In this document: positions 15,113 to 64,000 of the stretch, one piece after another
Layout of the letters: each line of letters opens with the position of its first letter
How positions within the stretch are numbered: the stretch's first letter is position 1
Assembly (NCBI GenBank): GCA_937952285.1
Contig: CALFZE010000048.1
Location: forward strand, 3,320 to 67,319
DNA: 64,000 nt
Origin: an uncultured Bacteriovoracaceae bacterium
Lineage (GTDB): Bacteria > Bdellovibrionota > UBA2428
Reading direction: 5' to 3'
The notes under the pieces: generated by a model
What the model was told of the DNA's origin: nothing
What the model saw: only the letters and a program-made list of their open reading frames with translations
Databases searched by the model: none
Translations under genes and position numbers: made by a program

Positions 15113-15116
15113 CGGC

Positions 15117-17357: not shown

Positions 17358-17365
17358 GGTCGGCG

Positions 17366-18454: not shown

Positions 18455-18457
18455 CGA

Positions 18458-18940: not shown

Positions 18941-19740
18941 CGGTGACCTCTTTTGGTTGATTTGGGGGGCCAGGGGAAGAAGAGACTCGTCCGGCGTTGG
19001 TAGTCCGCGTAGTCGGATCGGCTCTCGAGCGAGCGCGCTTCGGTCGGGCGAATGCCGGTGACCTTGAAGAGAAACGCCATCATGACGACGGGGCCGAGAA
19101 GCGTGAGCGCAAAGGTCAGTGCGGCGTTCTCGGCGCCGGCGACGAGGGCCCCGGCCGCCCAAATCACGTAGGTCCACCAATGAAGCCATTCGAAGAAGTA
19201 GTTGGGATGGCGGGAGTAACGCCAAAGCCCACGGTCGCACGTTTTCCCCCGGTTCGAAGGATCCGAAGCAAAGGCTTTGAGTTGGCGGTCTGCCAGGGCC
19301 TCGCCGAGAATCGAGCCCAGTCCCCACAGCAGTCCGACTCCGAAGAAGGGATTGCCCTCGATCGTGGCCCCCTTAAGGCCGCCTTCCATCGGGACCAGGA
19401 GAAGCCAAATGAGCAGAGCCTGGACTTGGTAGAAGACAAAAAACTGGCGGCTACCCCAACCGCGTTGGCGGAGGGAAGCGTAACGACGATCTTCGGCTTT
19501 GGCTTTCAGGACTCGGGTCGAGAGAAGATAGAGGCCCAAGCGCAGAGACCAAAGCACGGGAACGAGGGCGGCCACCCAAGCCCTTCGGGAATCCAGGCCG
19601 AGGACGATCCAGGGCACCGCCACGGCGAAACTCAGTGACCAAGCGGCGTCGACCGCGTTCGCGTTGCGGCTACGTTGCTGCCGCCACCACAAGAAAAACA
19701 TCGCGATCGCGGCCGCGACGTAGAGCGCGCAAAGAGTCAT
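18937..19740 (-). CDS. DUF1295 / steroid-5-alpha-reductase-like membrane methyltransferase family protein
   Basis: Multi-TM protein with the conserved YSRHPNYFFEWLHWW motif of the DUF1295/ICMT/PEMT superfamily. 4-nt overlap with the downstream SnoaL-like gene. Confidence 0.55.
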   Translation of the reverse strand: MTLCALYVAAAIAMFFLWWRQQRSRNANAVDAAWSLSFAVAVPWIVLGLDSRRAWVAALVPVLWSLRLGLYLLSTRVLKAKAEDRRYASLRQRGWGSRQFFVFYQVQALLIWLLLVPMEGGLKGATIEGNPFFGVGLLWGLGSILGEALADRQLKAFASDPSNRGKTCDRGLWRYSRHPNYFFEWLHWWTYVIWAAGALVAGAENAALTFALTLLGPVVMMAFLFKVTGIRPTEARSLESRSDYADYQRRTSLFFPWPPKSTKRGHR

Positions 19741-19899
19741 ACCTCGGTGAACTTAGCAGGGGGCGGCCCAAAGATCAGGGAAAGCTCTGGATAGTGCGAT
19801 GTGTCGACGGGCGCTCGCCGGCTCGGCCTAAATTTTGGCGAAGGGCCGGCCGATACATCCGATAAGATACCCGTGGGGAATCATTCGGAGGTTTTCGCT

Positions 19900-21507
19900 A
19901 TGCGTTTTTCCTTGAAGGGACTCGGACGAGTCATGGGTTGTGCGGCCACGCTTTGGGCGGGTGCCAGCTTCGGCGGCGTCAATGTGAACAACGGGAACTT
20001 CTACATCGCCTACACGGACTTCCTCGTGCAGACGCCCGGGCTCAATATCGACATCACGCGCACCTACAACAGCCGCTCGAACTACGTGCGCGGCTTCTTC
20101 GGGGTGGGCTGGTCGAGCGAGATCGAAAGCTACCTTAGCTTCGAGAAAGACGTCGTTTCGCTCTCGGAAGGCGGCGGCGGCAACATCGTCCGCTTCGAAC
20201 CCGTCAAGGGCAAGCCCGGCACTTGGGCGAACGGGGTCTTCGGCAACCAGACGCTGACCAAGGAAAAGACCGGGGGCTACGTCCTCGAGACGGCCACGGC
20301 CAAGGTCATGAGCTTCTCCGACAAGGGCCGGCTGCTGCGCATCGCGGACCGCAACAAGAACGTGATCGAGCTCGTCTACAAGGGCGATCGCATCGACATG
20401 ATCAAGGATAACCTCAACAACCAGATCAAAGTGACCTGGAAGGAGAACGTCGGCCGCCATCCGCGGATCGAAACCCTCCAGATGGGACCGAAGAAGGCTC
20501 GTTACGAGTACTCGAACGTGGGGAACCTCACGAAGGCGGCGGGTGCGGACGGCATCCAGTACGTCTACGCCTACGACGACGAGCACAACATGACCAAGAT
20601 CTCCTACGCGAACGGCTCGTTCAAGGAGATGGGCTACAACAAGGGCCGCGATTGGGTCACGAGCTTCCGCGACCAGGACGGCACGCGCACTTCCTACGAC
20701 TACTTCTCGGACACGCTCGACCCCGAGAACAAGTTCGGCACGACGGTGACGCGCGTCCCCGCCGGTTCGACGAACAAGGAAATCGCCCGCTTCTGGTACG
20801 AGTTCCGCAAGCGCGCCGACGGCAGTCGTTACAACTACAAGGCGGTCACCGAGATGCGCGACGTCGTGACGGAAACGCTCTTCACGGAATGCTGCGGCAC
20901 CCCGCTCGTCATCACCCAGTGGAAGTCCGTCGCGCCGAAGGCCGGCGAGACGACCCTCGCCTGGACGACGCCCAAGGCCGACAAGCGCTCGACCAAGTTC
21001 GAGTACTTCGAGGACGGCCTGCTCCGTCGCAAGACGGCGGCGGACGGCACGATCACGGCCCTGACCTACGATACGAAGCACAAGAAAGTCGCGAGCGTGG
21101 ATCGTGGCGGTCGCAAGGTCGAGTACAACTACGATCCGCGCGGTAACCTCGCGTGGGCCTTCGACGTGAACGACAAGCGTCGCCTCGACCTGACCTACGA
21201 CGTGAAGGGTCGCATCACGGTCGTCCAAGAAAAGCGTCCGACGATGGCCGGGCCGACCAAGATCTTCTTCCGCTACGACGCGATGGGGCGCCCCGTCGAG
21301 ATCAAGGAAACGCCCACGAACGCGAAGGAATCGATCATTCGCTTCGCGTACGGCTCCGAGGGCGAAGTCGTGGGCGTGCTCAACGCCCAGGGCCGCGCGG
21401 TCGCTTCGCAAGTCGAAGTCCAGAGCGCCCAACGCGTGGCCGCGACCTTCCAAAATCTTCTGCAGATCGTTCAACCGACGGGCGTGACGCTCACGCCGGA
21501 GGGCTAA
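19900..21507 (+). CDS. YD-repeat (RHS-family) secreted protein
   Basis: Start at internal ATG with GGAGG 8 nt upstream. Signal peptide. N-terminal GNFYIAYTDFLVQTPGLNIDITRTYNSRS block is typical of RHS N-regions. Multiple YD-type repeats (YDPRGNL, LTYDVKGRI, YDAMGRPVE). No recognisable C-terminal toxin domain. Confidence 0.6.
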   Translation: MRFSLKGLGRVMGCAATLWAGASFGGVNVNNGNFYIAYTDFLVQTPGLNIDITRTYNSRSNYVRGFFGVGWSSEIESYLSFEKDVVSLSEGGGGNIVRFEPVKGKPGTWANGVFGNQTLTKEKTGGYVLETATAKVMSFSDKGRLLRIADRNKNVIELVYKGDRIDMIKDNLNNQIKVTWKENVGRHPRIETLQMGPKKARYEYSNVGNLTKAAGADGIQYVYAYDDEHNMTKISYANGSFKEMGYNKGRDWVTSFRDQDGTRTSYDYFSDTLDPENKFGTTVTRVPAGSTNKEIARFWYEFRKRADGSRYNYKAVTEMRDVVTETLFTECCGTPLVITQWKSVAPKAGETTLAWTTPKADKRSTKFEYFEDGLLRRKTAADGTITALTYDTKHKKVASVDRGGRKVEYNYDPRGNLAWAFDVNDKRRLDLTYDVKGRITVVQEKRPTMAGPTKIFFRYDAMGRPVEIKETPTNAKESIIRFAYGSEGEVVGVLNAQGRAVASQVEVQSAQRVAATFQNLLQIVQPTGVTLTPEG

Positions 21508-48440: not shown

Positions 48441-49202
48441 TTAGGCGGCGGGAAGGTTGGCGACGGGCACGAAGGCGCGAACCTTGAAGAGATCCGCGAA
48501 GGCCGTCACGAGTTGCTCGGCGTCTTCGGTCACCTGGATGAATTCGATGCCGATGCCAAAGAGCCCGTTCTCGCGGTAGACCCAGCGCACGAGCCCTTCG
48601 CCTTGCAACGAGGTCGAAGGCAGCATCGCGAGCTGGATATCGAACTTCACGACTTGACCGACCTCGGGAATCTTCTGGCTCCGTTCCAGGAAGAGCGAGA
48701 AGCCGCCCCGTCCGACCGCGTGAACTTCGGCTTGCAGGTCGAAGTGGCGCTTCGTCGATCGCGGCGCGTTCCCGAGCAGGGCATTCCGCTCGGCGGGGCT
48801 CGGATCCGAAAGCCGGCGCGTTTTGGCGGCCACGGGTACGAGCCGCGCGGCGATCGCCAGGAATTCCTCCACGACGAAGGGCTTCTTGAGGGTTCCCCAG
48901 ACGCCCAGGTGATGCAGGTCGCGCAGGCTCAGTCCCGGCTGTTCGCCGAGCACGAGGATCTCGGGCTTGATGGGGTAGCGCATCCGGAGCTTCTCCACGA
49001 AGTCTGGCAGGTCGAGTTCGGGCAACTGGGAGTCGATCAGGAGCAGGCTCCACGTCCGCTCGGCCAGCTTGTCGGCGAGATCATGGGCCTCGCTCACGAT
49101 CTCGACCACGAAGTCGTGGTCCGCGAGGCTGCGGCGAAGGGCTTCGAGGCCTTCCGGAGAGGGACTCCAAGCCAAGACGGGAACCTGATTTCGTTTCATC
49201 AT
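48441..49202 (-). CDS. Receiver-like domain plus PilZ-like domain protein (putative c-di-GMP effector)
   Basis: N-terminal CheY-like layout with candidate phosphoacceptor in [13 protein letters not shown]-terminal region has an RxxxR-like box (RSTKRH) and a beta-barrel-like segment resembling PilZ. Domain calls are tentative. Confidence 0.45.
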
Positions 49203-49361
49203 CGACCCTCTCAGGATAGTCCGGAGACGAGTCCCCCGTCCGTGAAGATTTCGTGTGCCCGCCGTGTCGGCGGGGTGAAACTTCGCGCCGCCGCCCGACT
49301 TTTGCGGAAGGCCTCCGTCGGCCGTTGCGAGGCGGGGAAGGCGGGATTAAACCTCGGGGCC

Positions 49362-50789
49362 ATGGCAAATCAGACTCCTTCCGACACCCACTCCAACGTC
49401 CCGACCCGCGTCGAAACCGACACGATGGGCGAAATGAAGGTCCAGAGCGACAAGTACTGGGGCGCGCAAACGCAGCGCTCGCTCATCAACTTCCCCGTCG
49501 GCGAGGACCGCATGTCCCGCCCGATCATCCGCGCCCTCGGCATCCTCAAGAAGGGCGCTGCGCAGGCGAACTTCGAGCTCGGCAAGCTCCCCAAGGATAA
49601 GTTCGACGCCATCTGCAAGGCCGCCGACGAAGTCATCGAGGGCAAGCTCGACTCGCACTTCCCCCTCGTCGTCTGGCAAACGGGCTCGGGCACGCAAACG
49701 AACATGAACGCGAACGAGGTCATTTCGAACCGCGCCATCGAGATGATGGGCGGTACGATGGGTTCCAAGAAGCCCGTTCATCCGAACGACGACGTGAACA
49801 AGAGCCAAAGCTCGAACGACGTCTTCCCCACGGCCATGCACATCGCCGCGGTCGAAGTCGTCGAGCGTCAGCTCCTTCCCGGCCTGCACAAGCTCCAAAA
49901 GGCCCTCAAGGAGAAGGAAGAGAAGTTCGCCAAGGTCATCAAGGTCGGTCGCACCCACCTCATGGACGCGACGCCCCTCACGGTCGGCCAAGAAATCTCC
50001 GGTTGGCGCACGCAAGTCGAGTACGGCATCGAGCGCGTCGAGCAGTCCCTCGGCAAGCTTCGTTACCTCGCCCAAGGCGGCACGGCCGTCGGCACGGGTC
50101 TCAACACGCACCCCAAGTTCGCCGAGCTCGTGGCCAAAAAGATCACCGAGCTTTCGGGCTGCCAATTCGTGACGGCGCCCAACAAGTTCGAAGCCCTCGC
50201 TTCGCACGACGCGATCGTCTTCGCCCACGGCGCGCTCAAGACCCTCGCGTGCTCCTTCATGAAGATTGCCAACGACGTGCGCTGGCTCGGCTCGGGCCCC
50301 CGCTGCGGCCTGAACGAGTTCAAACTCCCCGAAAACGAACCCGGCTCCTCGATCATGCCGGGCAAGGTGAATCCCACGCAGAGCGAGTCGATGACGATGG
50401 TCTGCTGCCAGGTGCTCGGCAACGACGTCGCCATCAACATGGGCGGCGCTTCGGGTAACTTCGAGCTCAACGTCTTCAAGCCCCTCATGATCCACAACTT
50501 CTTGCATTCAGCGCGTCTGCTCGCGGACTCGGCTTCGACTTTCGTCGACCACTGCCTCGACGGACTCGAGATCGACGAGAAGGCCATCGCCAAGCACCTC
50601 GAGAATACGCTCATGCTCGTGACGGCGCTCAACACGCACATCGGCTACGACAAGGCGGCCGCGATCGCGAAGAAGGCCCACAAAGAGGGCAAAACCCTTC
50701 GCGAGACGGCGCTCGAGCTCGGCCACCTCACGAACGAGCAGTTCGACCAGTGGGTCCGCCCCGAAGACATGATCTATCCTCGCGAGTAG
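49362..50789 (+). CDS. fumC: Class II fumarate hydratase
   Basis: Full-length FumC including the [15 protein letters not shown] signature loop. Start at the internal ATG (MANQTPSD). Confidence 0.85.
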
Positions 50790-50848
50790 CTAACTACTCG
50801 GAACATTCGTAGAGGCAGCCTGAATCTGGCGGTCCTTAGGAGTTTGCG

Positions 50849-51403
50849 ATGGCCCGTACGCCTTCCGTCATGATCGAACTCGGCACGAAGTTGCCGTCTT
50901 TCCGTTTGCCCGACGTTGACGGACGCCCGGTGGCGTCCGACGACGTCGCCAAGTCGAAGGGCCTCCTCGTTATGTTCATCTGCAACCACTGCCCCTTCGT
51001 GAAGCATTTGCACCCCGTGCTCGGGGAGCGAGCGAACGCTTGGGTGAAGGCGGGCCTCGGCGTCGTCGCGATCAGTTCGAACGATGCCGTCGCCTATCCC
51101 GAGGATTCCCCCGAAAAGATGAAGCAGGAAAGCCGCGAGCGTGGTTTTGGGTTTCCGTATCTTTTCGACGAAACCCAGTCCGTCGCGAAGGCTTTTCGAG
51201 CGGCTTGCACCCCCGATTTCTTCCTCTTCGATGGTTCGCAGAGGCTCGTCTACCGGGGCCAGTTCGACGCGAGTCGGCCGGGTAATGGGAAAGCGGTGAA
51301 CGGCGAGGATCTGGAACGCGCGGTCCAGGCGCTTTTGGCCAATAAGCCGATTGATTCCAACCAGATGCCAAGTATCGGTTGCAACATTAAGTGGAGAGCC
51401 TAG
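50849..51403 (+). CDS. Thioredoxin-fold thiol-disulfide oxidoreductase (redoxin/AhpC-TSA-like)
   Basis: GLLVMFICNHCPFVKH active-site CxxC-type motif in a thioredoxin-fold context. Confidence 0.6.
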   Translation: MARTPSVMIELGTKLPSFRLPDVDGRPVASDDVAKSKGLLVMFICNHCPFVKHLHPVLGERANAWVKAGLGVVAISSNDAVAYPEDSPEKMKQESRERGFGFPYLFDETQSVAKAFRAACTPDFFLFDGSQRLVYRGQFDASRPGNGKAVNGEDLERAVQALLANKPIDSNQMPSIGCNIKWRA

Positions 51404-51571
51404 GCTTCGTTTGGGTATTCCGGGGATCGCCGCGCGCCTTCGAAAAAGTCTAACGGCAGGCGTTCCGGCGGCGTTCGCTGACATAAGTGCCTGAATTTTG
51501 ACACAGTCTTTGACGAGGCGAGTTAAGGTGTGGTAAATCTCCCCCTGGCTTTAGGCAAGGGAGTGCTTCGC

Positions 51572-53431
51572 ATGACGGCTCAACAAGGCCCCGCAAAAAT
51601 GAGAACGCTAATCACGTCTCAGGCCCGTACGCTTGTCTTCGAAGGCAAGCCGAAAGAAGCCGAGCAAAGCCTCAACAATCTTCTTAAGCAATCCCTCAGC
51701 ACGGCCGAGCGTCTCGAAGTCCTGGCGCTTCTCATCCGCTTAGCGGCCGAAAGCCGCAACGTCGAGCGCTTCCCGGAACTCATCGCCGAAGTCAAAAAGC
51801 TCGAAGTGACGACGGATGCCGATAAGGAAGCCCTGGCCGACTGTATCTACAGCACGGCGACGGGATGGTTCTACCTCGGTAACCACGACAAGGCTCGTTC
51901 CGGATTTGAACAGGCCCGCGAGATCTTCTCGAACCTCGCCAACGAGACCAAGGTCCTGAAGGCCGAGTTCTCGCTGGCCGAGATCATGCGTCAGGAAGGC
52001 CGATACTTCGAGATCCTCGAGAATCTCTCGATCATGAAAGAGCGTGCCGAACGTTTGGCCGACAACTTCTTGCTCGGGGACGTCCTGATCCTGGAAGGGA
52101 ACATTTACCGCAAGACGGGCGACTACGTTCGCGCGATCGACGCCTACGAAAAGGCGCGCGAGTTCCTCAGCGAAAACAAAAACTCCGAAAAGTACCACTA
52201 CACTCTGTGGGCCCTCGGCACTTGCTACGCGGCCCTCGAAGACAAGACGAAAGCCAAGATCTACCTCGAGCTCGCGAGCAACAACTTCAAGGGCGCCGCC
52301 TTCGTCCGTATCAATATCCTCTCCCTTCTGACGCTCGCCGAGCTTTACACGGTGCTCGGGCAATACAGCGACGCCGAGCAATCCTACAAGCGGGTCGAAG
52401 AACTCGTCGGCTCGGAAGAGAACTCTTATTTCGGCCGTCGTTTGCTCCGCGGCCAAGCGTTGCTGGCGATCAAGCGGGGCGAGTTCGACGTTTCCAACCG
52501 CCTCATCGATCAGCTCGTCCTTAACGCGATCAAGGAAAAGAACTCCAAAGAGATCATGCGCCTTCGCCTGTTGAAGGCGGAAGTGCTTTTGCGCGGCGGC
52601 GAGTCGCTGCAGCACGAAGAAGCGCGTGCCATGCTCCAGGAAGCCTTGGCTTTCTACCGCGAACAGAACGTTCGCCGTCACCAGGCCGTTTGCCTTGAGC
52701 TTCTCGCGCGTCTCGACTCCGCGTCGGGTTACCCGCAGGATTCGCTTAAGAAGGTCGAAGAAATGCTGGGGCTCGCGCAAGAAGGCGGATTCGAGCGTCT
52801 CGTCATCCGCGCTCACCTGGCTAAGCTTGTGCTCATGCGCAAGCTCGGAAATCAGATCAAGACCGAGGAGCTCGACCGTCTCATGCCGATGATCGAAAAG
52901 CTCTCGGCTTCGGCGGAACGCGTCGCCCTGTTGCGCTTCAAGCTCGAGAAGTACGAGGAGTGGACGAGCGAACTCAATCGCCTCGATCCCCATTCGCAAC
53001 GCTTCGTGAACGAATTCTTCGAGGATTTCCATTTCATCCCGAACCAGACGGTGGACCTCGAGATCGATCGCAATTCGCACTACGTGCGCGAGAAGCACCT
53101 GGGCGAGATTCCGTTCCATAATAAGTTCACGCTGATGAAGATCCTGTTGTTGCTGGCGGAAACGCCGGGGCGCGAGTTCTCCAAAGAGCAGCTCGCCAAG
53201 GAAATCTGGGAGCAGGAATACAATCCGCTCCGGCACGACAACAACATCTACATCAACATCAACCGCTTGCGGAAGCTCATCGAGCCGAACCCTCGCGAAA
53301 GCCGTTACGTCATGAACGGCTCGCGTGGTTACTATCTGAACCCGGCGATGAAGGTGAACATTTCTTCCAAAATCGCGGATGTCGCGCCTCGCGCGATGCC
53401 GAAGTCTAAAACGGAAGGGCCTCGCGCCTAG
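51572..53431 (+). CDS. TPR-repeat protein with C-terminal OmpR/PhoB-type winged-helix DNA-binding domain (transcriptional regulator)
   Basis: AAGGGAG RBS 8 nt upstream of the ATG. Long N-terminal TPR array. C-terminal FTLMKILLLLAETPGREFSKEQLAKEIWEQEYNPLRHDNNIYININRLRKLIE matches the trans_reg_C wHTH consensus. Possible sigma70 promoter TTGACG...TAAAT about 30-60 nt upstream. Confidence 0.55.
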   Translation: MTAQQGPAKMRTLITSQARTLVFEGKPKEAEQSLNNLLKQSLSTAERLEVLALLIRLAAESRNVERFPELIAEVKKLEVTTDADKEALADCIYSTATGWFYLGNHDKARSGFEQAREIFSNLANETKVLKAEFSLAEIMRQEGRYFEILENLSIMKERAERLADNFLLGDVLILEGNIYRKTGDYVRAIDAYEKAREFLSENKNSEKYHYTLWALGTCYAALEDKTKAKIYLELASNNFKGAAFVRINILSLLTLAELYTVLGQYSDAEQSYKRVEELVGSEENSYFGRRLLRGQALLAIKRGEFDVSNRLIDQLVLNAIKEKNSKEIMRLRLLKAEVLLRGGESLQHEEARAMLQEALAFYREQNVRRHQAVCLELLARLDSASGYPQDSLKKVEEMLGLAQEGGFERLVIRAHLAKLVLMRKLGNQIKTEELDRLMPMIEKLSASAERVALLRFKLEKYEEWTSELNRLDPHSQRFVNEFFEDFHFIPNQTVDLEIDRNSHYVREKHLGEIPFHNKFTLMKILLLLAETPGREFSKEQLAKEIWEQEYNPLRHDNNIYININRLRKLIEPNPRESRYVMNGSRGYYLNPAMKVNISSKIADVAPRAMPKSKTEGPRA

Positions 53432-53451
53432 CGCGCGAGCTAAGGGGTTTC

Positions 53452-54006
53452 ATGGGGGGTTCCATGATGAATCAGGGTTGCTTGTCGGCGCTCGTTTTGA
53501 GCTTGGGAATGGCCGTTTCGGGTTTGGCGGAGGCGGGCCCCAAGTCCGCGTCGTCGTTATTCCCGGTTCCGGCTTGCGAAGTTCGTCACGATCGCGAAAC
53601 TCTCGCGACGCAAGTCCGGGGCGAGTACCGTCCGACGGGTGACGGGTCGATCCCCTGGCTGAGCCTGGTCGGGACGTGGGTAGATGAAAAGCGCGGCATC
53701 ATCGTGCAGTTCCAAACGGAACCTTTCAGCAATAACAAGTTCGGGATCGCCCGCATCACGTTGAAGAATCTTTGCACGCTCCAGGTGATCGCCAAAGGAG
53801 CACGCCTGGTGACCGAGGAAGATCTGGATGCCGAAGTCTTTGAAGCCTCCTTGCGAGTCTATGGCTATCTGCGTCATAGTCAGATTTCGATCCTCCTCGA
53901 TATGAACCCGGAAGGAATTGCGACGCCTTACACGCGGGTTCGCTTCAAGCGGATGGACCTGACGAAGCCCAAAATCGTCGACGAGTTCTGGCTTCAGCGC
54001 CCGTAA
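53452..54006 (+). CDS. Hypothetical secreted protein
   Basis: Signal peptide LSALVLSLGMAVSGLAEA. No recognisable domain. Followed by a 9-bp perfect hairpin at 54017-54039. Confidence 0.4.
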   Translation: MGGSMMNQGCLSALVLSLGMAVSGLAEAGPKSASSLFPVPACEVRHDRETLATQVRGEYRPTGDGSIPWLSLVGTWVDEKRGIIVQFQTEPFSNNKFGIARITLKNLCTLQVIAKGARLVTEEDLDAEVFEASLRVYGYLRHSQISILLDMNPEGIATPYTRVRFKRMDLTKPKIVDEFWLQRP

Positions 54007-54038
54007 GAACAAAGCAAGGGCCGACGCGAAGTCGGCCC

Positions 54039-54068
54039 TTGACGCCCCGAGTATCTGTCGATAATACC
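54039..54068 (+). promoter_or_regulatory. Putative sigma70-type promoter (TTGACG - about 16-17 nt - ATAATA/TAATAC) driving the small basic ORF and rpsR
   Basis: -35 TTGACG at 54039-54044 and -10-like GATAATAC at 54060-54067. The ATG at 54079 lies only about 5-10 nt downstream of the predicted start site and has no SD, suggesting a leaderless or near-leaderless mRNA. Confidence 0.4.
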
Positions 54069-54078
54069 CACAACTCTT

Positions 54079-54192
54079 ATGGCACGTGGTGACAATCGCA
54101 GAACCCTCAAGAAAACTCGCCGCAAGGCTCAGCGTAAGAAGAAAGCGCGCATTCAAAAGCGCAAGGCGGCTGGTAAAGCCGCTAAGAAGTAA
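54079..54192 (+). CDS. Unlisted 37-aa highly basic small protein, possible ribosomal protein bTHX-like
   Basis: MARGDNRRTLKKTRRKAQRKKKARIQKRKAAGKAAKK. Codon usage is typical of highly expressed genes (CGT/GGT/GCT/AAG). Lies between a promoter-like element and rpsR. N-terminal MxRGDxRRT resembles Thermus Thx (MGKGDRRTRRGK...). Below the length cut-off of the ORF track. Confidence 0.45.
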   Translation: MARGDNRRTLKKTRRKAQRKKKARIQKRKAAGKAAKK

Positions 54193-54226
54193 GCCAGCGC
54201 CGGCATTTAAGGGATAGAGACGGAAA

Positions 54227-54529
54227 ATGGATAAGCCGAATTTCAATCAAATGGACGATTCCGGAGCCAAAGAAGGCCGTGAAGGCGGTCGCGAAGGCCG
54301 CGGCGGCGGTCGTGGTTTCGGTCGCCGCAAGGTCGACCCCTTCCTCCTCGATAAAACCCTCGTTCTTGACTACAAGAACATCAAAGCGCTCGGCCGTTTC
54401 GTTTCCGAAACCGGCAAGATCGTTCCGCGCCACATCACCGGCGCGACGGCTAAGCACCAGCGTCAGATCGCCCGCTTCGTGAAGCGTTGCCGTAACCTCG
54501 GCCTCTTCGCTCCGAAGATGGAAGGCTAA
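54227..54529 (+). CDS. rpsR: 30S ribosomal protein S18 with Gly/Arg-rich N-terminal extension
   Basis: Core LDYKNIKALGRFVSETGKIVPRHITGATAKHQRQIARFVKRCRNLGL matches bS18. About 35-aa N-terminal extension (EGREGGREGRGGGRGFGRR). Confidence 0.8.
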   Translation: MDKPNFNQMDDSGAKEGREGGREGRGGGRGFGRRKVDPFLLDKTLVLDYKNIKALGRFVSETGKIVPRHITGATAKHQRQIARFVKRCRNLGLFAPKMEG

Positions 54530-54573
54530 AAAGCTGGCTGTTCAAGGCTCCTCGCGGGGCCTAAACTGAGGGA

Positions 54574-56862
54574 ATGGCGACATCCCCTCAGGAGCCCAAG
54601 ACTCTGGATTTGAACCGAATTCGTGAGTCGGTCAGAACCCGTTTCGAGCAATCGAAGCGGGTTTTGTCGTTTGAAGAGTACCTGGGCCTCCTGGCCTCGG
54701 ACCCTTTCCGTTATCTGCGAGGGGGGCCGCACTACCTCCTCGACGCCATCCAGCACTTTGGGATCGACGAGGTCCCCGTCCGCGGCGTTACGCGCAAGCG
54801 CTACCGTATCTTCGAGAAAAGCTTCGCCGAGAACCACCAGCCCGTGGTCTCGCACGAAAACGTCCAGCACGAGCTCGTGCGCTTGCTCACGAGCTTCGTA
54901 CGGAGCGGTCGGGCCGACAAGCTGATCGTTCTCCACGGCCCCAACGGCTCGGCTAAGTCGACTTTCGTGCGTTCCCTGCTCGCGGGACTCGAGGATTACT
55001 CGAAGGCCAACGAAGGCGCGCTCTTCTCGTTCTCGTGGGTCTTTCCCCAAGATAGTTTCGAGAAGGCCACGCTCGGCCTCGGGGCGCGGAAGGCCACCAT
55101 CGGCGGCGAGACGGACTCCTTCGCCGCCCTCGATCACGAGAAAGTCGCCGCGGTCGTCCGCAGCGAGCTGCGTGAGAATCCGCTCGCGCTCATCCCCCAC
55201 GAAGATCGCATGATGCTTTTCGACGAGTGGCTGCACGCGATTCCCGCGGGAGCCGAGCGCGATCGATTGGCGGCCCTGCGGCCCACGGTTTCCAAGCTCG
55301 AGCTTAGCCACAAGAACGCCATCATTTTCGAAGCGCTCCTGAACGACTGCAAGGGTGACCTCAAACGCGTTTTCCGCCACGTCCGCGTCGAGCGCTTCTA
55401 TCTGAGCCGTCGTTTCCGCACGGGCCTCGTCACGGTCGAACCCCAGTTCGGCGTCGACGCTCAGCTTCGCCAGGTCACGCTGGACCGGTCGATGTCGCTC
55501 CTGCCGCCGGCGCTCCAGTCCCTGAATCTCTTCCAGCTCGAAGGCGACCTCGTCGACGGTAACCGCGGGGTCGTCGAGTTCAACGACTTGCTCAAGCGTC
55601 CGCTCGAATCCTTCAAGTATCTGCTCGGTACTTCGGAGACGGGCACGGTGACGCTCGGCCACGTCATGGCATATCTCGACACCGTCTTCATCGCGACGAC
55701 GAACGACCGCCAGCTCGAGGCCTTCCGGGAGCATCCCGAGTTCAACAGCTTCAAGGCTCGCATCGAGCTCATCAAGGTGCCTTATCTCCTGCGTTACTCG
55801 GAGGAGGCCAAGGTCTACGGGGAGACGGCGCGCCGGGCGGCCGGTCCCAAGGAGCTCATGCCGCACACGACTTCGCTGCTCGCGCTTTGGGCGGTGATGA
55901 CCCGCCTCAAACGGCCGAACGCCAAGAACAAGAGTTCGATGCTCGCCGGTGTCCTTGAGAACCTCGGGCCTTTGGCGAAGGCCAAGCTTTACGACTCGGC
56001 CGATATACCGGAGAACCTCAACGACGAAGAGCGCCGCGAGCTCAAGTCCGCGCTCGAAGACCTGATCCTCGAGCAGCAGAACCAGCCCTTCTACGAAGGT
56101 TACCTGGGCGCCTCGGCGCGCGAGCTCAAGGTCGTCCTGCAGATGGCCGCGCAGAACGATCAGTTCCCGACCCTCGGGCCGGGCGCGGTCTTCGCCGAGC
56201 TCGACAAACTCATCCGCCGCCCGCTCGATTTCGAGTACCTGCGCATCGAGCCCAATCAGGGCTACCACGACTACGAAGGAATGCTGAAACTCGTGCGCCA
56301 GGAATGGCTGAACCTCGTGGATCGCGAGATGGAAGCCTGCCTCGAGCTCGACCGCAAGGACCAGATCAACGAGTCGCTCGAGAGGTACGTCCGCAACGTC
56401 ATGGCGAACGTGCGCAAGGAAAAGGTCAAGAACCGTATCACGGGCCAGTTCGAGGAAGTCGACGAGAGCCTGATGACCGAGTTCGAGAATTTCATTTCCG
56501 TCACGGACAACCGCGAAGACTACCGTCGCAACCTCATCTCGCGCCTCGGCGCGTGGAGCATCGAAAACCCCGGTCGCGCGGCCGGCGGCCAAGCGCTTCC
56601 TTACGACAAGATCTTCACCGATATCGTGAAGCGGCTGCGCGCCAAATTCCACGAACAGCACGTCGCGAAGATCCGCACGATGGGGGCCCTCTTCGTCGAG
56701 ACGGCCGGCTTCGACGTCGAGGCGCTCAAGAAGCGCCCCTCGACCAACGAAGCCGAGGGCCTCGCGATCCGCGTCTTCGAGGGCATGCAGGCGAAGTTCG
56801 GATACGGCCCGGCGGGCGCGAAGGAAGCGCTGACCGAGCTCATCCGTTCGCGTTACCACTGA
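54574..56862 (+). CDS. prkA: PrkA-family serine protein kinase (YeaG homologue)
   Basis: N-terminal PrkA AAA-like domain with Walker A LHGPNGSAKSTFVRSL. Long C-terminal PrkA domain. 762 aa. Confidence 0.8.
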   Translation: MATSPQEPKTLDLNRIRESVRTRFEQSKRVLSFEEYLGLLASDPFRYLRGGPHYLLDAIQHFGIDEVPVRGVTRKRYRIFEKSFAENHQPVVSHENVQHELVRLLTSFVRSGRADKLIVLHGPNGSAKSTFVRSLLAGLEDYSKANEGALFSFSWVFPQDSFEKATLGLGARKATIGGETDSFAALDHEKVAAVVRSELRENPLALIPHEDRMMLFDEWLHAIPAGAERDRLAALRPTVSKLELSHKNAIIFEALLNDCKGDLKRVFRHVRVERFYLSRRFRTGLVTVEPQFGVDAQLRQVTLDRSMSLLPPALQSLNLFQLEGDLVDGNRGVVEFNDLLKRPLESFKYLLGTSETGTVTLGHVMAYLDTVFIATTNDRQLEAFREHPEFNSFKARIELIKVPYLLRYSEEAKVYGETARRAAGPKELMPHTTSLLALWAVMTRLKRPNAKNKSSMLAGVLENLGPLAKAKLYDSADIPENLNDEERRELKSALEDLILEQQNQPFYEGYLGASARELKVVLQMAAQNDQFPTLGPGAVFAELDKLIRRPLDFEYLRIEPNQGYHDYEGMLKLVRQEWLNLVDREMEACLELDRKDQINESLERYVRNVMANVRKEKVKNRITGQFEEVDESLMTEFENFISVTDNREDYRRNLISRLGAWSIENPGRAAGGQALPYDKIFTDIVKRLRAKFHEQHVAKIRTMGALFVETAGFDVEALKKRPSTNEAEGLAIRVFEGMQAKFGYGPAGAKEALTELIRSRYH

Positions 56863-58960: not shown

Positions 58961-60205
58961 TTAAGCGAGCATCGAAGCGATCGCGGACGCGAGCCGGCGG
59001 GCCAACGTTTCTTTCGTCGCTTCGCCCAGGTCCTTCGTCTCGCCGGACTTGGAAAGAAACCACAGGCGATTGCGTTCGCCGCCAGGACCTGCGCCCGCGC
59101 GCGCGGGATTGGCCACGATGGCGTCGGCGCCCTTACGGGCGAGCTTCGCCTGGGCTTTGGCGACGACTTCGGCGTCGTCCCCCGCCTCGAGGGCGAACGC
59201 GACGACCTTCTGCCCCGGGCGCCGCTCGGCCACGGCCCGGGCGACGAAGTCGATCGACGCCTTCGCGGCGAGCTCGATTTTTCCGTTCGCGGCCAAAGCC
59301 TCGCGGCTGATCTTGGCGTCGGTGCCTTGCACTTCGAAGTCCAGCACCGCGGCGGCGGACACGAAGACGTCGCAATCCCGAAAAGCTTGGGCGACGGCCG
59401 CGTCGTAATCCGCCAGGGTGACGTACGGGGTCACCGGAAAGTCGGCGAAGCCGCGGGCGATCTCTTCCCCGACGGGGCCCAAAATCACGCTCACGAGCGC
59501 GCCGGCTTCGCGCAGGGCGCGCGCGAGCTCGAGCCCCATGCGGCCGGACGAGCGGTTCTGGACGTAGCGAACGGCGTCGAGCGAGGTCCGCATCGGGCCG
59601 GCCGACAGCAGGATCCGGCGGCCCCGCAAGGAACTCTCCGCGTTCGCGCCGGGATTCGGGTGATTTTGTTGGGGGGCACGGGAAAGCGAAGCGAACGACG
59701 CGAAAATCTCGGAGTGGGGAGCGATGTGGCCGTAGCCGCTCTCGCCGCAGGCGACCTTGCCCCAACTCGGGCCGACGAATTGATACCCGTAAGTCCGCAA
59801 TCGCTCGGCGTTTGCGCGTACCGCCGGATGCTCCCACATGGACGGATTCATGGCCGGCACGACGAAGACGGGCCCTCGGAAGGCGAGGATCTGCAAGCTC
59901 ATGAAGTCGTCCCCCCGGCCGGCGGCCAGTTTGGCGAGGGTTTCGGCCGTCGCGCCGTAGACGACGAAGGCCTCGGCCCAGCGGGCCGTCGAGATATGGT
60001 CCGTGCCTTCGTGCGAGGGGTGGAAGATGTCGGGATGGTGAACGCGTCGGCCGGCGAAAGTCTCCAGGACTCGCGCCGATACGAATTCGAGCGCCGAGCG
60101 AGTAGGGACGACTTCGACTTCGTGACCGGCCGCGACCAGCTCCTTCACGAAATCCGCGCTCCGGTAAGCGGCGATGCTCCCGGCGATGCCGACGCAAATC
60201 TTCAT
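58961..60205 (-). CDS. coaBC: Bifunctional phosphopantothenoylcysteine decarboxylase / phosphopantothenate--cysteine ligase
   Basis: N-terminal flavoprotein domain (KICVGIAGSIAAYRSADFVKEL...PAMNPSMWEH). C-terminal CoaB ligase domain (RYVQNRSSGRMG, DAIVANPA). Confidence 0.85.
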   Translation of the reverse strand: MKICVGIAGSIAAYRSADFVKELVAAGHEVEVVPTRSALEFVSARVLETFAGRRVHHPDIFHPSHEGTDHISTARWAEAFVVYGATAETLAKLAAGRGDDFMSLQILAFRGPVFVVPAMNPSMWEHPAVRANAERLRTYGYQFVGPSWGKVACGESGYGHIAPHSEIFASFASLSRAPQQNHPNPGANAESSLRGRRILLSAGPMRTSLDAVRYVQNRSSGRMGLELARALREAGALVSVILGPVGEEIARGFADFPVTPYVTLADYDAAVAQAFRDCDVFVSAAAVLDFEVQGTDAKISREALAANGKIELAAKASIDFVARAVAERRPGQKVVAFALEAGDDAEVVAKAQAKLARKGADAIVANPARAGAGPGGERNRLWFLSKSGETKDLGEATKETLARRLASAIASMLA

Positions 60206-60294: not shown

Positions 60295-61695
60295 ATGTCG
60301 ATGCAAGTAAAGTTCTTGGGCGCCGCCGGGACCGTCACGGGAAGCCGTACCCTGCTGACCCACGGTCGAAGTCGTGTCCTCGTGGACTGTGGACTTTTTC
60401 AGGGCACGAAAGAACTGCGTGCCTTGAACTGGGATCGCTTTCCCGTGGATCCCGCTTCCATCGATACGGTCGTGTTGACCCACGCCCATCTGGACCATTC
60501 GGGCTACTTGCCCAAGCTCGTCCGGGAGGGTTTTCGGGGAAATGTTTTCGCGACGGCCGGCACCCGGGACCTTTGTGAAGTCCTCCTGCGGGATTCGGCC
60601 CGCTTGCAGGCTGAAGACGCGGAGTACGCGAATCGTACCGGGCATTCTCGCCATAAACCGGCTTTACCGCTCTACGACGAGGGAGATGTCGAGGCTTGTC
60701 TCCGGCTCTTTCGCGTCGTTCCCCGGCAGGAATGGAAAGCCTTGGTGCCGGGGCTCGCGGTTCGTTTCGGTCGGGCCGGGCACATCACGGGCGCCAGTTT
60801 CCTCGAGTTTCAGGTCGAGGCGTCGCCTTCCCGGTACCGTGTCTTGGGGTTCAGCGGAGACGTTGGGCATTCCCGTTCTCGGGTTTTAAGGCCGCCGGAG
60901 GCGATGGAGGGGCCCGATACCCTCGTACTCGAGTCGACCTACGGCGACCGTCTTCATGCTCGCGACGATGTCGCCCAAAGCGTCGTTCCGATCATTCGGC
61001 GAGTTCTCGAGCGCGGAGGCACTCTCATGATTCCCAGCTTCGCCGTGGGGCGAACGCAGGAAATTCTTTTCCTTTTGGCGGAGCTCGAACGCCAAGGTCG
61101 GATTCCCGAGGTGCCCGTTATCCTTGATAGTCCCATGGCGCAGTCGGCGACGAAGATTTTCTTTCGGCATCCCGAAGACCACATTTTCGACCAAGCTTTC
61201 GGCCCCACGCGCGAAGAACTCTTTCCTCGTTTCTTCGAGGAATCGGCTTCGCGCGACGACTCCATGCTTGCGACGATGCGGGATGATCCCAAGATTATCG
61301 TGGCGGGAGCCGGAATGGTTACGGGAGGAAGGATTCTGCACCATCTCAAGCGTCGTCTGCCGGACCCTCGCCACGGGGTCCTCTTCGTGGGCTACCAGGC
61401 CGAGGGAAGCAAGGGTCGCTATCTTCTCGACCAGGGACGGGCGAACGGATCGATTCGTATCCATCACGCCGAGATTCCGATCGAGGCCGAGATCTTTCAG
61501 GTTTCGGGTCTTTCCGCGCACGGGGACTACGAAGACCTCATGGAATGGGTGAGCCGATTTCATCAACTCCCCAAGAAGGTGTATCTCAATCACGGTAGCC
61601 CAACGGCAATGGAGGCTTTCGCCGAGAAGCTTCGATCTCGCTTCCACGTCGAAGTACAAATCGCTCGGAACGGAGAAAGTTTTAGCTGGGCCTAG
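60295..61695 (+). CDS. MBL-fold beta-CASP family RNA-metabolising hydrolase
   Basis: Metallo-beta-lactamase motifs (LTHAHLDHSGYLP, DSPMA) and beta-CASP motifs with the C-terminal RNA-specificity region (GLSAHGDYEDL, HGSP). Confidence 0.7.
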   Translation: MSMQVKFLGAAGTVTGSRTLLTHGRSRVLVDCGLFQGTKELRALNWDRFPVDPASIDTVVLTHAHLDHSGYLPKLVREGFRGNVFATAGTRDLCEVLLRDSARLQAEDAEYANRTGHSRHKPALPLYDEGDVEACLRLFRVVPRQEWKALVPGLAVRFGRAGHITGASFLEFQVEASPSRYRVLGFSGDVGHSRSRVLRPPEAMEGPDTLVLESTYGDRLHARDDVAQSVVPIIRRVLERGGTLMIPSFAVGRTQEILFLLAELERQGRIPEVPVILDSPMAQSATKIFFRHPEDHIFDQAFGPTREELFPRFFEESASRDDSMLATMRDDPKIIVAGAGMVTGGRILHHLKRRLPDPRHGVLFVGYQAEGSKGRYLLDQGRANGSIRIHHAEIPIEAEIFQVSGLSAHGDYEDLMEWVSRFHQLPKKVYLNHGSPTAMEAFAEKLRSRFHVEVQIARNGESFSWA

Positions 61696-61747: not shown

Positions 61748-62899
61748 ATGTTCAGGGTGGGAGTCCTTGCGTTCACGGCATTGTTGGCATCGTTCTCGTT
61801 CGCTCGTGCGATAAAGAGCGATTATCGGGAAGTTCGCGGTATTAAGTACCCCGAATTTGGCGAAAACGGCCGTCGCCCCGTTTACTCTCGAACGTTAAGT
61901 CCTCGTGACAGTTCCGAGCCCTTGCCGGGTTACAGCGAGCTCGTTGAGTATGTTTTGCCTTCGCCCAACCAGTTGGACGCAGGAAGCTGCCTCTACATGT
62001 CGCTCACCGGGATCGCCGAGTGGTGGCTGGCGCGTCGTTCGCCGCAGGTTTCGCGGGCTTCCGAAGGTCCCCTCGATCTGAGCGAACGCTTCCTCATGAA
62101 CCTGGCCGACCGAGCTTCTTCCAACAACAACGTCATCAAGAATTGGAAGACCGACTCGATTTTGGCCTTTAACAAAGGGGGCCGCGCGGCCCTGAACCGC
62201 GACTACCCCTTTACGATGGGTTGGTACAAGTCGGGCGAGAACGGCTACGAAAAGGCCGTCGCGAACAGCGCGGGCGCGGAGTACGGCCCTTCCTTCAATT
62301 GGATCGATGACTTGGATAGCTACCGAGGTATCGGGGTTCTTCTACCGCGTTTCCGCCGGGACGTGCTTTTTGCCGATCCCGAGTCCAACCAGTGGAACGT
62401 CGGCGTCATGCCGGCGAACATTGTGGAGACGGTCAAGGAAGCCCTTCGCCGGAACCAGGCCCCCGTCCACGTGCTCTACAACCATTACGGCTACTGGCAC
62501 GCGAACATCGTTTTGGGCTACGACGATGAGCTCAAACGAGAAGGTTGCCCCTTCGTGACCCGCTTCCGTGAGCAGCAGGCGAACGAAGCCAAAAAGCTTC
62601 GCCAAGAAGCCCAGCGCACCAACGATCCCAAACAACGCGAGACCCTTTTGGCCCGCGCGACGAAATTCGAAGGAACCGTGCGAAAGTTCGATGCTTCGTG
62701 GCGAGCCCGCGGCGGCTGCCGGGGCCAAGGCGCGTTTTACGTTCGGGACTCGATTTACGACGACCCTAATGCCCCGGCTTATGACTACGACCGCCTTAAG
62801 AAGGGCGAGGAAGAGCCTTATTCCAAGCGCATCGTCATGCTGGAGTACGAGTGGCTCCAGCACATGGCGAACCACGCTATCCAGATCCTAATCCAATAG
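61748..62899 (+). CDS. Secreted papain-like (C1-family-like) cysteine peptidase, putative
   Basis: Signal peptide. QLDAGSCLYMS...EWW resembles the papain Q...C-W active-site block. HANIVLGYDD resembles the GGHAV..GYG His block. Family assignment is tentative. Confidence 0.4.
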   Translation: MFRVGVLAFTALLASFSFARAIKSDYREVRGIKYPEFGENGRRPVYSRTLSPRDSSEPLPGYSELVEYVLPSPNQLDAGSCLYMSLTGIAEWWLARRSPQVSRASEGPLDLSERFLMNLADRASSNNNVIKNWKTDSILAFNKGGRAALNRDYPFTMGWYKSGENGYEKAVANSAGAEYGPSFNWIDDLDSYRGIGVLLPRFRRDVLFADPESNQWNVGVMPANIVETVKEALRRNQAPVHVLYNHYGYWHANIVLGYDDELKREGCPFVTRFREQQANEAKKLRQEAQRTNDPKQRETLLARATKFEGTVRKFDASWRARGGCRGQGAFYVRDSIYDDPNAPAYDYDRLKKGEEEPYSKRIVMLEYEWLQHMANHAIQILIQ

Positions 62900-62940
62900 A
62901 GTAGAGTCCTAAAAGCTGAGCTTTGCTCGGTAAAAGTTTT

Positions 62941-62958
62941 CCTTATGTTTGCATAAGG
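62941..62958 (+). promoter_or_regulatory. Perfect 7-bp inverted repeat (ccttatg-tttg-cataagg) overlapping the RBS region of the repeat-tailed ORF; candidate operator or RNA hairpin
   Basis: Seen directly. Located about 25 nt upstream of the GTG start at 62983, within an AT-rich intergenic segment. Confidence 0.3.
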
Positions 62959-62982
62959 GAGGCTTACCTTTGAGGATGAACT

Positions 62983-63387
62983 GTGAATAACTTTTTAAGA
63001 ATTATGGCTCTCGACGAGCTTAAGACGCGTAGCGTTGTGTTTGTAAATGCTCGTCAAGAGGCAGGAATTAACGAAATCTACGATCCCGACGCCGGATCTT
63101 TCATGTTTCAAGTTTTTATCCACAACCAGTTTCCCTACACCGAAGAAGGGGCTTGGCTCTTCCCGACCTTTGCCGAAGCCCGAAGCTTCGCGGCCCAAAC
63201 TTTTCAGGGAGAATGGGAAATGCTCCTTTGGGATAAGGACATCAAACGTCCTTGTTCGGAGGGAGGCGGCGGTTGCGGGAGCGGCGGAAGCTGCGGTACC
63301 GGCGGTGGTTGCGGTAGTAGCGGTGGAGGCTGCGGCTCGAGCGGTGGTGGTTGCGGCAGCGAAGGCGGAGGCTGCGGCTCGGCCTAG
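62983..63387 (+). CDS. Small protein with AT-rich-encoded N-terminal domain and C-terminal (GGGCGS)x6 Cys/Gly/Ser repeat tail (hypothetical; RiPP-precursor-like or metal-binding)
   Basis: GTG start with GAGGA 6 nt upstream (ATG at 63004 is the alternative). 5' 270 nt is markedly AT-rich versus the window. 3' 110 nt encodes CGSGGSCGTGGGCGSSGGGCGSSGGGCGSEGGGCGSA. Confidence 0.5.
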   Translation: MNNFLRIMALDELKTRSVVFVNARQEAGINEIYDPDAGSFMFQVFIHNQFPYTEEGAWLFPTFAEARSFAAQTFQGEWEMLLWDKDIKRPCSEGGGGCGSGGSCGTGGGCGSSGGGCGSSGGGCGSEGGGCGSA

Positions 63388-63556
63388 TCCAGAATCCCGG
63401 AAGTCGGAAAACCGGATTTTCCTCGTTCGCGAACTTCATTCAAAAATCGCTCCACGTGCCTGGCATCTTTTTCGCTCGGCATGCGCTTTCGCTCTTTCTC
63501 CCAAGAAGTCCTCTCGGCATGGCCCTTGCGTTTCGGAACGCGGGGACCGGCAGAAA

Positions 63557-64000
63557 GGATTTCGAAATGTTCTTCTTCCAAAAATCTTCGACTCGCCGTT
63601 TGGCGCAGATCCTCCTGGGGATCGTGACCATTCCGGTCGGAACGCGTGCGTGGGCGCTTCCCGATCCGCGCCGCACGCTCATGGCGGATGCCCTCAAGGA
63701 GGTTTACGAAGCGCAGCCGTCGATCCGCGAATCCAAAATCCTCGGCGATCACGAACGGCAGACGACTCTCTACGTGGGGCCCGCGGCCCGCAAAGAACGG
63801 GCCGGAAGCTTTCAGTGGATCGACTACGCCGGCACTTGCGGGCAGCTCAAGAATCTCTTCGAGCTGAGCTACTTCATGCCCAAGGGCGATTCTTCGGGTT
63901 GGCCGAAAGCCGCGCGTCGGGGTTCGGTGTCGCCTTTCTTCGATTACCACTACGGCAACGCGGTCGCGCAATCCGAAACCCTGCGCCAGCTCGCCGGCCG
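63557..64000 (+). CDS. Secreted hypothetical protein, 5' part (runs off window end)
   Basis: ATG at 63557. Signal-like N-terminus RRLAQILLGIVTIPVGTRAWALP. Strong GC3 bias and no stop through 64000. Not in the ORF track because it is incomplete. Overlapping listed ORFs (63384..63971 -, 63646..63867 +) lack GC3 bias. Confidence 0.45.

Follow-up and report, generated by a model that had tools for sequence, protein, structure and literature searches.

The window analysed here, a 64,000-nt stretch of contig CALFZE010000048.1 (assembly GCA_937952285.1) from an uncultured Bacteriovoracaceae bacterium of the Bdellovibrionota, carries near its end a small open reading frame (ORF) whose product closes in a repetitive tail of cysteine, glycine and serine. 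What does such a protein do? An earlier note, made from the DNA letters, took the ORF for a possible precursor of a ribosomally synthesised and post-translationally modified peptide (RiPP), of the heterocycloanthracin or thiazole/oxazole-modified microcin/linear azol(in)e-containing peptide (TOMM/LAP) kind, and kept a metal-chelating tail as its fallback. We found that the ORF is not the core of a locally encoded RiPP. Comparison with its relatives leads us to infer, with a probability of about 0.5, a cytoplasmic metal- or redox-active thiol-tail protein working with PrkA, an AAA+ stress ATPase encoded upstream; the inference extends alike to the metal or redox chemistry, the PrkA partnership and the regulatory mechanism.

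The ORF is present as the earlier note had described it and encodes 134 aa. Thirteen homologues open with the same M-N-N-[FLY]-[LI]-[RK]-I-[ML] (MNNFLRIM in the window), placing the start at GTG 62983, and the near-invariant context GAGGAT-N6-GTG-AAT-AAC of 24 related loci supports the same codon. One public gene call for an identical sequence begins at ATG 63004 and not at the GTG, so that the 134-aa product has no exact public match. No signal peptide was found in this product. A word-indexed search of 5.8 billion clusters returned 13 full-length relatives of 121-139 aa and 47-62% identity, whilst an exhaustive hidden Markov model (HMM) search of 1.84 billion representatives with a profile of the N-terminal domain recovered only 10 clusters and no remote relatives. 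All 14 matching loci on one-genome-per-species contigs came from Bdellovibrionota or Bacteriovoracaceae metagenome-assembled genomes (MAGs), or from MAGs with no finer label, and a metagenome scan added 23 further family loci. Synteny was compared over 33 non-redundant loci, cysteines were counted in 31 distinct full-length members and HMM scans covered 34 relatives; a clade with GTG starts comprises 24-25 loci in hosts of 31 to 63% GC. Neither Pfam nor NCBIfam holds a model that scored above threshold with the window protein or any of the 34 relatives, and a PDB sequence search with the window protein found no relative. By its sequence, the window ORF is a member of an uncharacterised small-protein family confined to predatory Bdellovibrionota. 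The family, its link to PrkA and its conserved cis elements are new.

The protein is predicted to consist of two contrasting parts. AlphaFold2 placed residues 1-85 at a predicted local distance difference test (pLDDT) score above 90, and the runs for the window protein (13 sequences) and for P0010, a typical member (20 sequences), agreed. In both runs the predicted fold has two short helices, four strands, a helix at residues 63-73 and a final strand. No fold relative of the domain was found, leaving the predicted structure with no known counterpart. Across the 13-sequence family alignment 19 residues are invariant. The first cysteine of the window protein, C91, stands at the very end of this domain, which is free of cysteine in 26 of the 31 members counted.

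The tail behind it received pLDDT values of only 39-53 in both runs and is predicted to be disordered. In the window it reads C-SEGGGG-C-GSGGS-C-GTGGG-C-GSSGGG-C-GSSGGG-C-GSEGGG-C-GSA, with 75% Gly plus Ser and cysteine spacings of 6,5,5,6,6,6. The string quoted in the earlier note is exact and corresponds to residues 98-134; the six near-identical GGGCGS units that it described do form a repeat, though not a strictly identical one (CGSGGS, CGTGGG, CGSSGGG twice, CGSEGGG and CGSA, with an extra cysteine at 91). In the DNA beneath, Tandem Repeats Finder reported a 42-nt period with 2.9 copies and 76% matches.

What the family preserves in this tail is a count. Exactly six tail cysteines occur in 27 of the 31 members and seven in the other four (the window copy, L002, L006 and L040). 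Most often the cysteines are arranged as C-x6-C-x4-C-x2-C-x(11-20)-C-x2-C; in a second clade the arrangement is C-x5-C-x4-C-x(10-18)-C-x(3-4)-C-x2-C, with an acidic TKEFDELL at the end. Many members carry a conserved [DE]GG motif right after the RPC that closes the domain. At four loci (L015, L033, L035 and L036) the N-terminal domains differ and the tails are identical or nearly so. At least one CxxC is found in 29 of 31 members, the window copy and L002 being the only two without; Gly/Ser-rich spacers of GGGC units are shared by the window copy and the metagenome relatives P0004, P0005 and P0007-P0009. Judged from these comparisons, what is constrained in the tail is how many cysteines it has and not its sequence. 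In the window copy, GGGC[GS] units duplicated in tandem have taken the place of the usual CxxC-containing spacers, which implies that the number of thiols counts for more than their precise geometry.

Similar CG[ST]GG-type runs were also seen in three unrelated proteins, P0014, P0015 and P0016. Two of them have a NifX/NifB-like PF02579 domain with a Cys/Gly/Ser insert, and one, of 156 aa, has another N-terminal region and ends in a GGGCG tail. The motif may thus recur as a module on other scaffolds. P0014, whose N-terminus differs and whose tail is similar, had been considered as a distant relative; it could be aligned by eye, but hhalign gave a probability of 0.07% and it was dropped.

A repetitive Cys/Gly/Ser-rich tail behind a conserved N-terminal region is also what a RiPP precursor would look like, with the 90-aa domain as a large leader and the enzymes, whether of TOMM/LAP, heterocycloanthracin-like or other Cys-modifying class, encoded elsewhere in the genome. 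The [DE]GG motif is in keeping with this, as are sub-threshold matches to the heterocycloanthracin/sonorensin model TIGR03601 in 5 of 34 relatives (best E-value 0.016), which are driven by tail composition. On the window protein, however, TIGR03601 scored 11.2 bits (E-value 0.43) against a cut-off of 35 bits, and the leader models named in the earlier note, the nitrile hydratase type NHLP (TIGR03793) and Nif11 (TIGR03798), gave no match. Heterocycloanthracins have a cysteine at every third residue, about 13 cysteines in all and strain-variable tripeptide indels (Haft 2009, PMC2674419). They share with the window protein a small size, a conserved N-terminal region and a C-terminus of Cys/Gly-rich repeats, yet here the cysteines are spaced by 5-6 residues rather than 2 (mostly 6,4,2,n,2 in relatives), number a steady six or seven, and follow a 90-aa folded domain rather than a leader of roughly 35-50 aa. 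That domain is confidently folded as modelled and does not resemble nitrile hydratase or Nif11. The window family is moreover restricted to Bdellovibrionota and linked to prkA, beside which its gene is single-copy and stably placed.

Nor did the surroundings supply the enzymes. Pfam scans covered 41 window ORFs (all those called from 46.2 kb to the gene and all of at least 300 aa upstream of that), three ORFs in a 2.6-kb downstream extension (L001) and the recurrent neighbour families of the 33 loci, each followed for up to 10 kb on either side. No YcaO, SagB-type dehydrogenase, radical SAM protein, lanthipeptide enzyme or C39-ABC exporter was found among them, bearing out the earlier observation that no YcaO or dehydrogenase is visible in the window. 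The scanned ORFs belong to flagellar, Tad-pilus, Tol-Pal, tricarboxylic acid cycle, tRNA-modification and similar genes. The single HFCD flavoprotein among them is fused to a DFP domain and is therefore CoaBC. The combination that the earlier note had set against its own proposal, no enzymes within 15 kb and a variable tail on a conserved protein, was largely what we found; the protein is lineage-specific and not the housekeeping protein envisaged there. Taken together, the low model score, the lack of enzyme genes nearby, the folded 'leader' and the fixed cysteine count speak against a heterocycloanthracin, TOMM or LAP precursor, and we regard a RiPP of any of these classes as highly improbable.

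The genomic neighbourhood points elsewhere. When all ORFs of the 33 loci were clustered, a PrkA-family protein of 754-768 aa was the only gene family to accompany the small-protein gene nearly everywhere. In 27 of 33 loci its gene precedes the small-protein gene on the same strand, and in 20 of them the gap is no more than 223 nt. In one clade, whose small-protein gene has an ATG start, the gap is -4 to 22 nt, which suggests translational coupling to prkA. Five of the six loci with no prkA have less than 2.7 kb of upstream DNA, so that L042 is the single real exception. The window PrkA is a distant member of its family, scoring 59.6 bits with the YeaG-type equivalog model NF011999 (cut-off 576). 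It closes a block shared with the relatives, fumarase / AhpC / TPR-Trans_reg_C regulator / ~190-aa protein of no known family / S18 / PrkA.

The biochemical role of PrkA is debated, kinase and Lon-like protease both having been proposed, and we know of no PrkA accessory of the present type. In the PrkA/YeaG-YeaH(YhbH)-SpoVR(YcgB) modules, too, a small or medium accessory gene lies right downstream of prkA on the same strand, but the window small protein is unrelated to YeaH (DUF444) or SpoVR and its PrkA is a distant one. No DUF444 or SpoVR match was found by Pfam for the window protein or its 34 relatives, and no gene for either was seen in the loci. Adjacency and apparent coupling make a functional partnership with PrkA the most economical inference.

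We thus propose a small cytoplasmic protein with a compact alpha/beta domain of about 90 residues and a flexible tail of six cysteines (here seven). A metal site or a thiol switch would be expected to show just this, a fixed number of thiols in a flexible, otherwise free-running stretch of a cytoplasmic protein, and for that reason we read the tail as one or the other, rather than as a hypervariable RiPP core or a mere linker. The tail would coordinate a metal (Zn, an Fe-S cluster or Cu(I)) or act as a reversible thiol/disulfide switch, and the protein would work with the divergent PrkA-family ATPase as cofactor, sensor or substrate. Control of its expression would act at the 5' end of the transcript, through a leader hairpin, the invariant Shine-Dalgarno (SD)/GTG context and a complementary element at codons 43-47. 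The metal-chelating tail that the earlier note had kept as its fallback is, in this modified form, the best available reading.

Known Cys-rich metal-binding tails and knuckles offer a comparison. These include zinc-ribbon or rubredoxin-type CxxC...CxxC sites, the metallochaperone tails of SlyD and HypB, and bacterial metallothioneins. Like them, the family keeps a few cysteines, constant in number, in a stretch of a cytoplasmic protein that is flexible and otherwise variable. Most relatives also resemble a zinc-ribbon or rubredoxin-like Cys4 site in having two C-x2-C pairs 11-20 residues apart, C-x2-C-x(11-20)-C-x2-C; the window copy lacks the two CxxC knuckles of such a site and has two extra N-proximal cysteines (C91 and C98). 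None of the 34 members scanned matched a bacterial metallothionein (SmtA/BmtA-type) in Pfam or NCBIfam.

Several observations weigh against the proposed role. Pfam, NCBIfam and PDB hold no homologue that links either the domain or the tail to metal binding, the window copy has no CxxC at all, and AlphaFold2 builds no zinc-ribbon-like knuckle even in CxxC-bearing P0010 with its 20-sequence alignment. As for the partnership, gene adjacency suggests a functional link with prkA but falls short of proof. In the window, about 6.1 kb with five ORFs are interposed between prkA and the small-protein ORF: an unknown 197-aa protein, a SnoaL-like protein, an unknown 257-aa protein, CoaBC and a beta-CASP metallo-beta-lactamase nuclease, after which comes a C1-like peptidase candidate. 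These interposed ORFs are not at that position in other loci. Alone among the loci, L042 (contig Ga0209187_1000005, host GC 0.31) has 10 kb of DNA upstream and yet no prkA. Finally, the lack of local enzymes is insufficient alone to exclude a RiPP, because a heterocycloanthracin precursor gene can be 1.27 Mb away from the genes of its enzymes (PMC2674419).

The same neighbourhood could be explained by a substrate or adaptor of the PrkA AAA+ machine, in which the chief use of the disordered Gly/Ser-rich tail is as a tag for engagement or degradation, the cysteines being secondary. For the PrkA of Bacillus subtilis, a published study reports a Lon-like ATP-dependent protease and not a kinase (PMC9512850). 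With this would agree the tight and, in one clade, apparently translationally coupled position of the gene, the predicted disorder of the tail and the acidic or hydrophobic C-terminal motif TKEFDELL of some clades. A simple unstructured tag, however, fails to explain six strict cysteines amid freely changing spacers, and we consider a tag of this kind unlikely as the chief function. It is compatible with a thiol-sensing role and not exclusive of it.

How might synthesis of the thiol-tail protein be controlled? The perfect inverted repeat CCTTATG-TTTG-CATAAGG seen in the earlier note is present upstream of the gene and unique in the window. It forms the core of a leader stem-loop with a local fold z-score of -4.1. 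In the GTG-start clade, about 19 of 25 loci have a hairpin some 8 nt 5' of the SD, and its stem differs in sequence between loci: the window has the arms UUUUCCUUAUG/CAUAAGGGAGG, L038 has CUUAAGUAAC/GUUACUUAAG and L040 has AAGCAGG/CCUGCUU. Folding each leader against its shuffles gave a mean z-score of -1.36, with values below -1 in 17 of 25 loci. RNAalifold found no common stem in the MAFFT leader alignment, the stems being in different registers. The idea that the repeat acts as an RNA structure or in repression therefore holds broadly, whereas its supposed overlap with the ribosome-binding site does not: the conserved SD lies outside the hairpin, and the GGGAGG in the 3' arm is not conserved. 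The hairpin as an upstream terminator was rejected as a sole explanation, since it persists where the upstream gene is divergent (L002 and L014) and hence belongs to the small-protein gene. The ribosome-binding context itself (TGAGGATAACTTGTGAATAAC, GTG start included) is nearly invariant across 24 loci over the whole range of host GC. No sigma-70 promoter emerged from a promoter and terminator scan, and the terminator-like sites that it gave inside the ORF did not exceed chance level.

The leader hairpin is preceded by a second, GC-richer one, GCUGAGC-UUU-GCUCGGU followed by AAAAGUUUU, which lies past the stop codon of the upstream ORF. It may be the terminator of the upstream ORF; the simple terminator scan did not call it.

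Constraint at the nucleotide level extends into the coding region. In the GTG-start clade some synonymous sites are frozen whilst others are saturated. Codons 2 and 3 are AAT in 20 of 21 and AAC in 24 of 24 loci, and codons 45-47 are TTT ATC CAC, each in 23 of 24. In the clade with ATG starts, which lacks the leader, codons 45-47 vary. The SD region, UGAGGAUAACUUG, is complementary to codons 43-48, CAAGUnUUUAUCCACA, and in the resulting helix of 12 pairs 93% of cells are paired; sliding the partner by 1-3 columns lowers this to 29-49%. GGAUAA/UUAUCC was the only long-range helix shared in RNAalifold. Minimum free energy (MFE) folds of single sequences paired the SD with the codon 43-48 element in 12 of 24 loci, the window included, and in the window MFE fold all 10 SD-region bases that pair at all do so with this element. 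As in ribosome-binding-site-sequestering long-range mRNA helices, then, the SD region has its complement in an element inside the gene.

The same letters can also be read as a pair of DnaA boxes. The DnaA box is TTATNCACA in Escherichia coli and NN(A/T)TCCACA in Bdellovibrio bacteriovorus, where positions 4 and 6-9 are critical (PMC5124646). Both TTATCCACA, within the codon 43-48 element, and TTATTCACA, over the start codon, match TTATNCACA with positions 4 and 6-9 conserved; they stand in inverted orientation, 134 bp apart. The minus-strand box TTATTCACA is found at the same offset in 22 of 25 clade loci and lies over the SD instead in L034, and it varies at the degenerate fifth position. Two such boxes are carried by 23 of the 25 clade loci; their density in the flanks, about 370 kb in all, is 0.02 per kb. 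No dnaA or oriC markers lie near the small-protein locus in the window.

Covariation cannot decide between the two, as both sides of the helix hardly vary: the observed values were matched in 78-457 of 500 shuffles. In L002, position 9 is lost in both boxes, yet the coding element has changed in such a way that it pairs perfectly with the start region over 8 bp, which argues mildly against the DnaA-box reading. We slightly prefer the RNA helix (roughly 55:30), and the constraint on hairpin, SD/GTG context and synonymous sites would fit either. Codons 21 (window 63043-63045; GTA in 21 of 21 loci) and 28 (63064-63066; GGA in 24 of 24) are frozen as well and are accounted for by neither reading. 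The prkA-less locus L042 has a TTG start, a shifted SD and neither DnaA-box-like 9-mer.

These cis elements coincide with an AT-rich islet. The compositional break described in the earlier note was confirmed by sliding-window GC: only four of 1277 200-nt windows have a GC of 0.47 or less, starting at 62801-62951, and the minimum of 0.43 compares with a mean of 0.631 (sd 0.046) for the 64-kb window. The N-terminal domain has a GC of 0.47, against 0.58 expected from its amino acids and host codon usage, so amino-acid composition explains part of the AT-richness. GC at third codon positions (GC3) is 0.51 in the domain and 0.84 in prkA of the same window.

The earlier note had taken this break as a sign of horizontal acquisition, the islet being a small transferred insert. 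The lowest GC in the window, a GC3 of 0.51 beside about 0.8 for neighbouring genes, and the displacement of the gene by 6 kb from prkA through ORFs not at that position in other loci would suit a recently acquired foreign gene. Against this, the window has the same fumarase / TPR-regulator / S18 / PrkA synteny as the relatives, and low GC3 recurs in other GC-rich hosts in which the gene abuts prkA (0.57 against 0.81 for prkA in L006, 0.55 against 0.69 in L015). Low GC3 thus travels with the gene, which together with the shared synteny argues against recent transfer. The AT-rich positions are, besides, nucleotides invariant across the family, and no integrase, tRNA or flanking direct repeats were noted. 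We hold recent foreign origin to be the least probable of all the explanations considered here. Constraint at the nucleotide level, not foreign origin, appears to keep the islet AT-rich in a GC-rich genome.

Other genes of the window deserve mention (Table 1). Directly upstream of prkA is a stand-alone gene for ribosomal protein S18 (TIGR00165, 67.9 bits), found at the same position in 20 of 33 loci. The usual context of an S18 gene is rpsF-ssb-rpsR-rplI, and the prkA-linked gene lies outside it. A family-less protein (~184-225 aa) and a TPR/Trans_reg_C protein (OmpR-type winged helix) are encoded upstream of S18 and prkA in most loci, which suggests a larger conserved module around PrkA. The best NCBIfam models for the beta-CASP nuclease were type VII CRISPR Cas14 (355 bits, cut-off 800) and archaeal aCPSF1 (279, cut-off 580); it is probably a generic RNase-J or CPSF-like enzyme. 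The ORF immediately upstream of the small-protein gene, described in the earlier note as papain-like, found no support as such from Pfam, NCBIfam or PDB sequence search. It has a signal-peptide-like N-terminus and only a sub-threshold DUF6381 match, and a 394-aa ORF in L002 drew just a 'faint' Peptidase_C1 flag. Further upstream lies a Tad/Flp pilus set followed by an RHS-repeat protein.

Table 1. Positions of the small-protein gene, its parts and its cis elements, and of other features of the 64-kb window.
Feature	Position	Strand	Basis or remark
Complete ORF, 134 aa, GTG start, TAG stop	62983..63387	+	ORF call; N-terminus and start context conserved
N-terminal globular domain, residues 1-91, ends in invariant R-P-C	62983..63255	+	AlphaFold2, 13-sequence alignment
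Cys/Gly/Ser tail, residues 91-134 (44 residues), 7 Cys	63253..63384	+	GGGC[GS]-expanded variant of the family six-Cys tail
Imperfect tandem DNA repeat beneath tail	63265..63381	+	Periods 18/21/42 nt, 75-81% matches; direct-repeat family D1
Leader stem-loop, 14 bp including 3 G-U pairs, loop UUUG	62934..62965	+	RNA folding; palindrome core 62941-62958
Ribosome-binding context TGAGGATGAACTGTG	62971..62985	+	Conserved; SD GAGGA 62972-62976, 6-nt spacer, GTG
Codons 43-48, CAAGTTTTTATCCACA, candidate anti-SD	63109..63124	+	Complementary to SD region
DnaA-box consensus TTATCCACA, inside codon 43-48 element, at +133	63116-63124	+	Only perfect copy in 64 kb
Second DnaA-box-like 9-mer TTATTCACA, spanning GTG start and codons 2-3	62982..62990	-	Consensus match
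AT-rich islet, lowest GC in window	62801..63150	.	Sliding-window GC
Divergent prkA, 762 aa	54574..56862	+	Pfam AAA_PrkA and PrkA C-terminal domain; 6.1 kb from the ORF
Shared block, fumarase to PrkA	48513-56862		Synteny with relatives
TPR and Trans_reg_C protein, 633 aa	51530-54006	+	
Ribosomal protein S18 gene	54227-54529	+	TIGR00165
HFCD flavoprotein (CoaBC)	58961-60205		Fused to DFP domain
Beta-CASP metallo-beta-lactamase nuclease	60295-61695	+	NCBIfam
ORF upstream of the small-protein gene	61748..62899	+	Signal-peptide-like N-terminus
Second, GC-richer hairpin	62915-62931	+	
Tad/Flp pilus set (RcpC/CpaB, secretin, CpaE-CpaF-like fused ATPase, TadB/C)	12451-21507	+	

The finding removes a false-positive natural-product lead: a Cys/Gly/Ser repeat behind a conserved N-terminus is insufficient to call a RiPP precursor. 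It offers instead an orphan, lineage-specific family with a clear genomic partner, prkA, whose six-thiol tail is a testable handle on PrkA function in Bdellovibrionota. The conserved synonymous sites likewise offer a small system in which constraint on the RNA could be distinguished from constraint on the DNA (DnaA boxes) within coding sequence. A more speculative and rather doubtful extension joins the two: in predatory bacteria the protein may sense thiols or metal as the partner of a divergent PrkA AAA+ machine, and its synthesis may be gated by a dedicated cis element, either two inverted DnaA boxes that straddle the gene's first 140 nt or a ribosome-binding-site-sequestering helix formed from the same sequences. 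If so, such a gated partner would couple replication or starvation status to PrkA activity during the switch from attack phase to growth phase.

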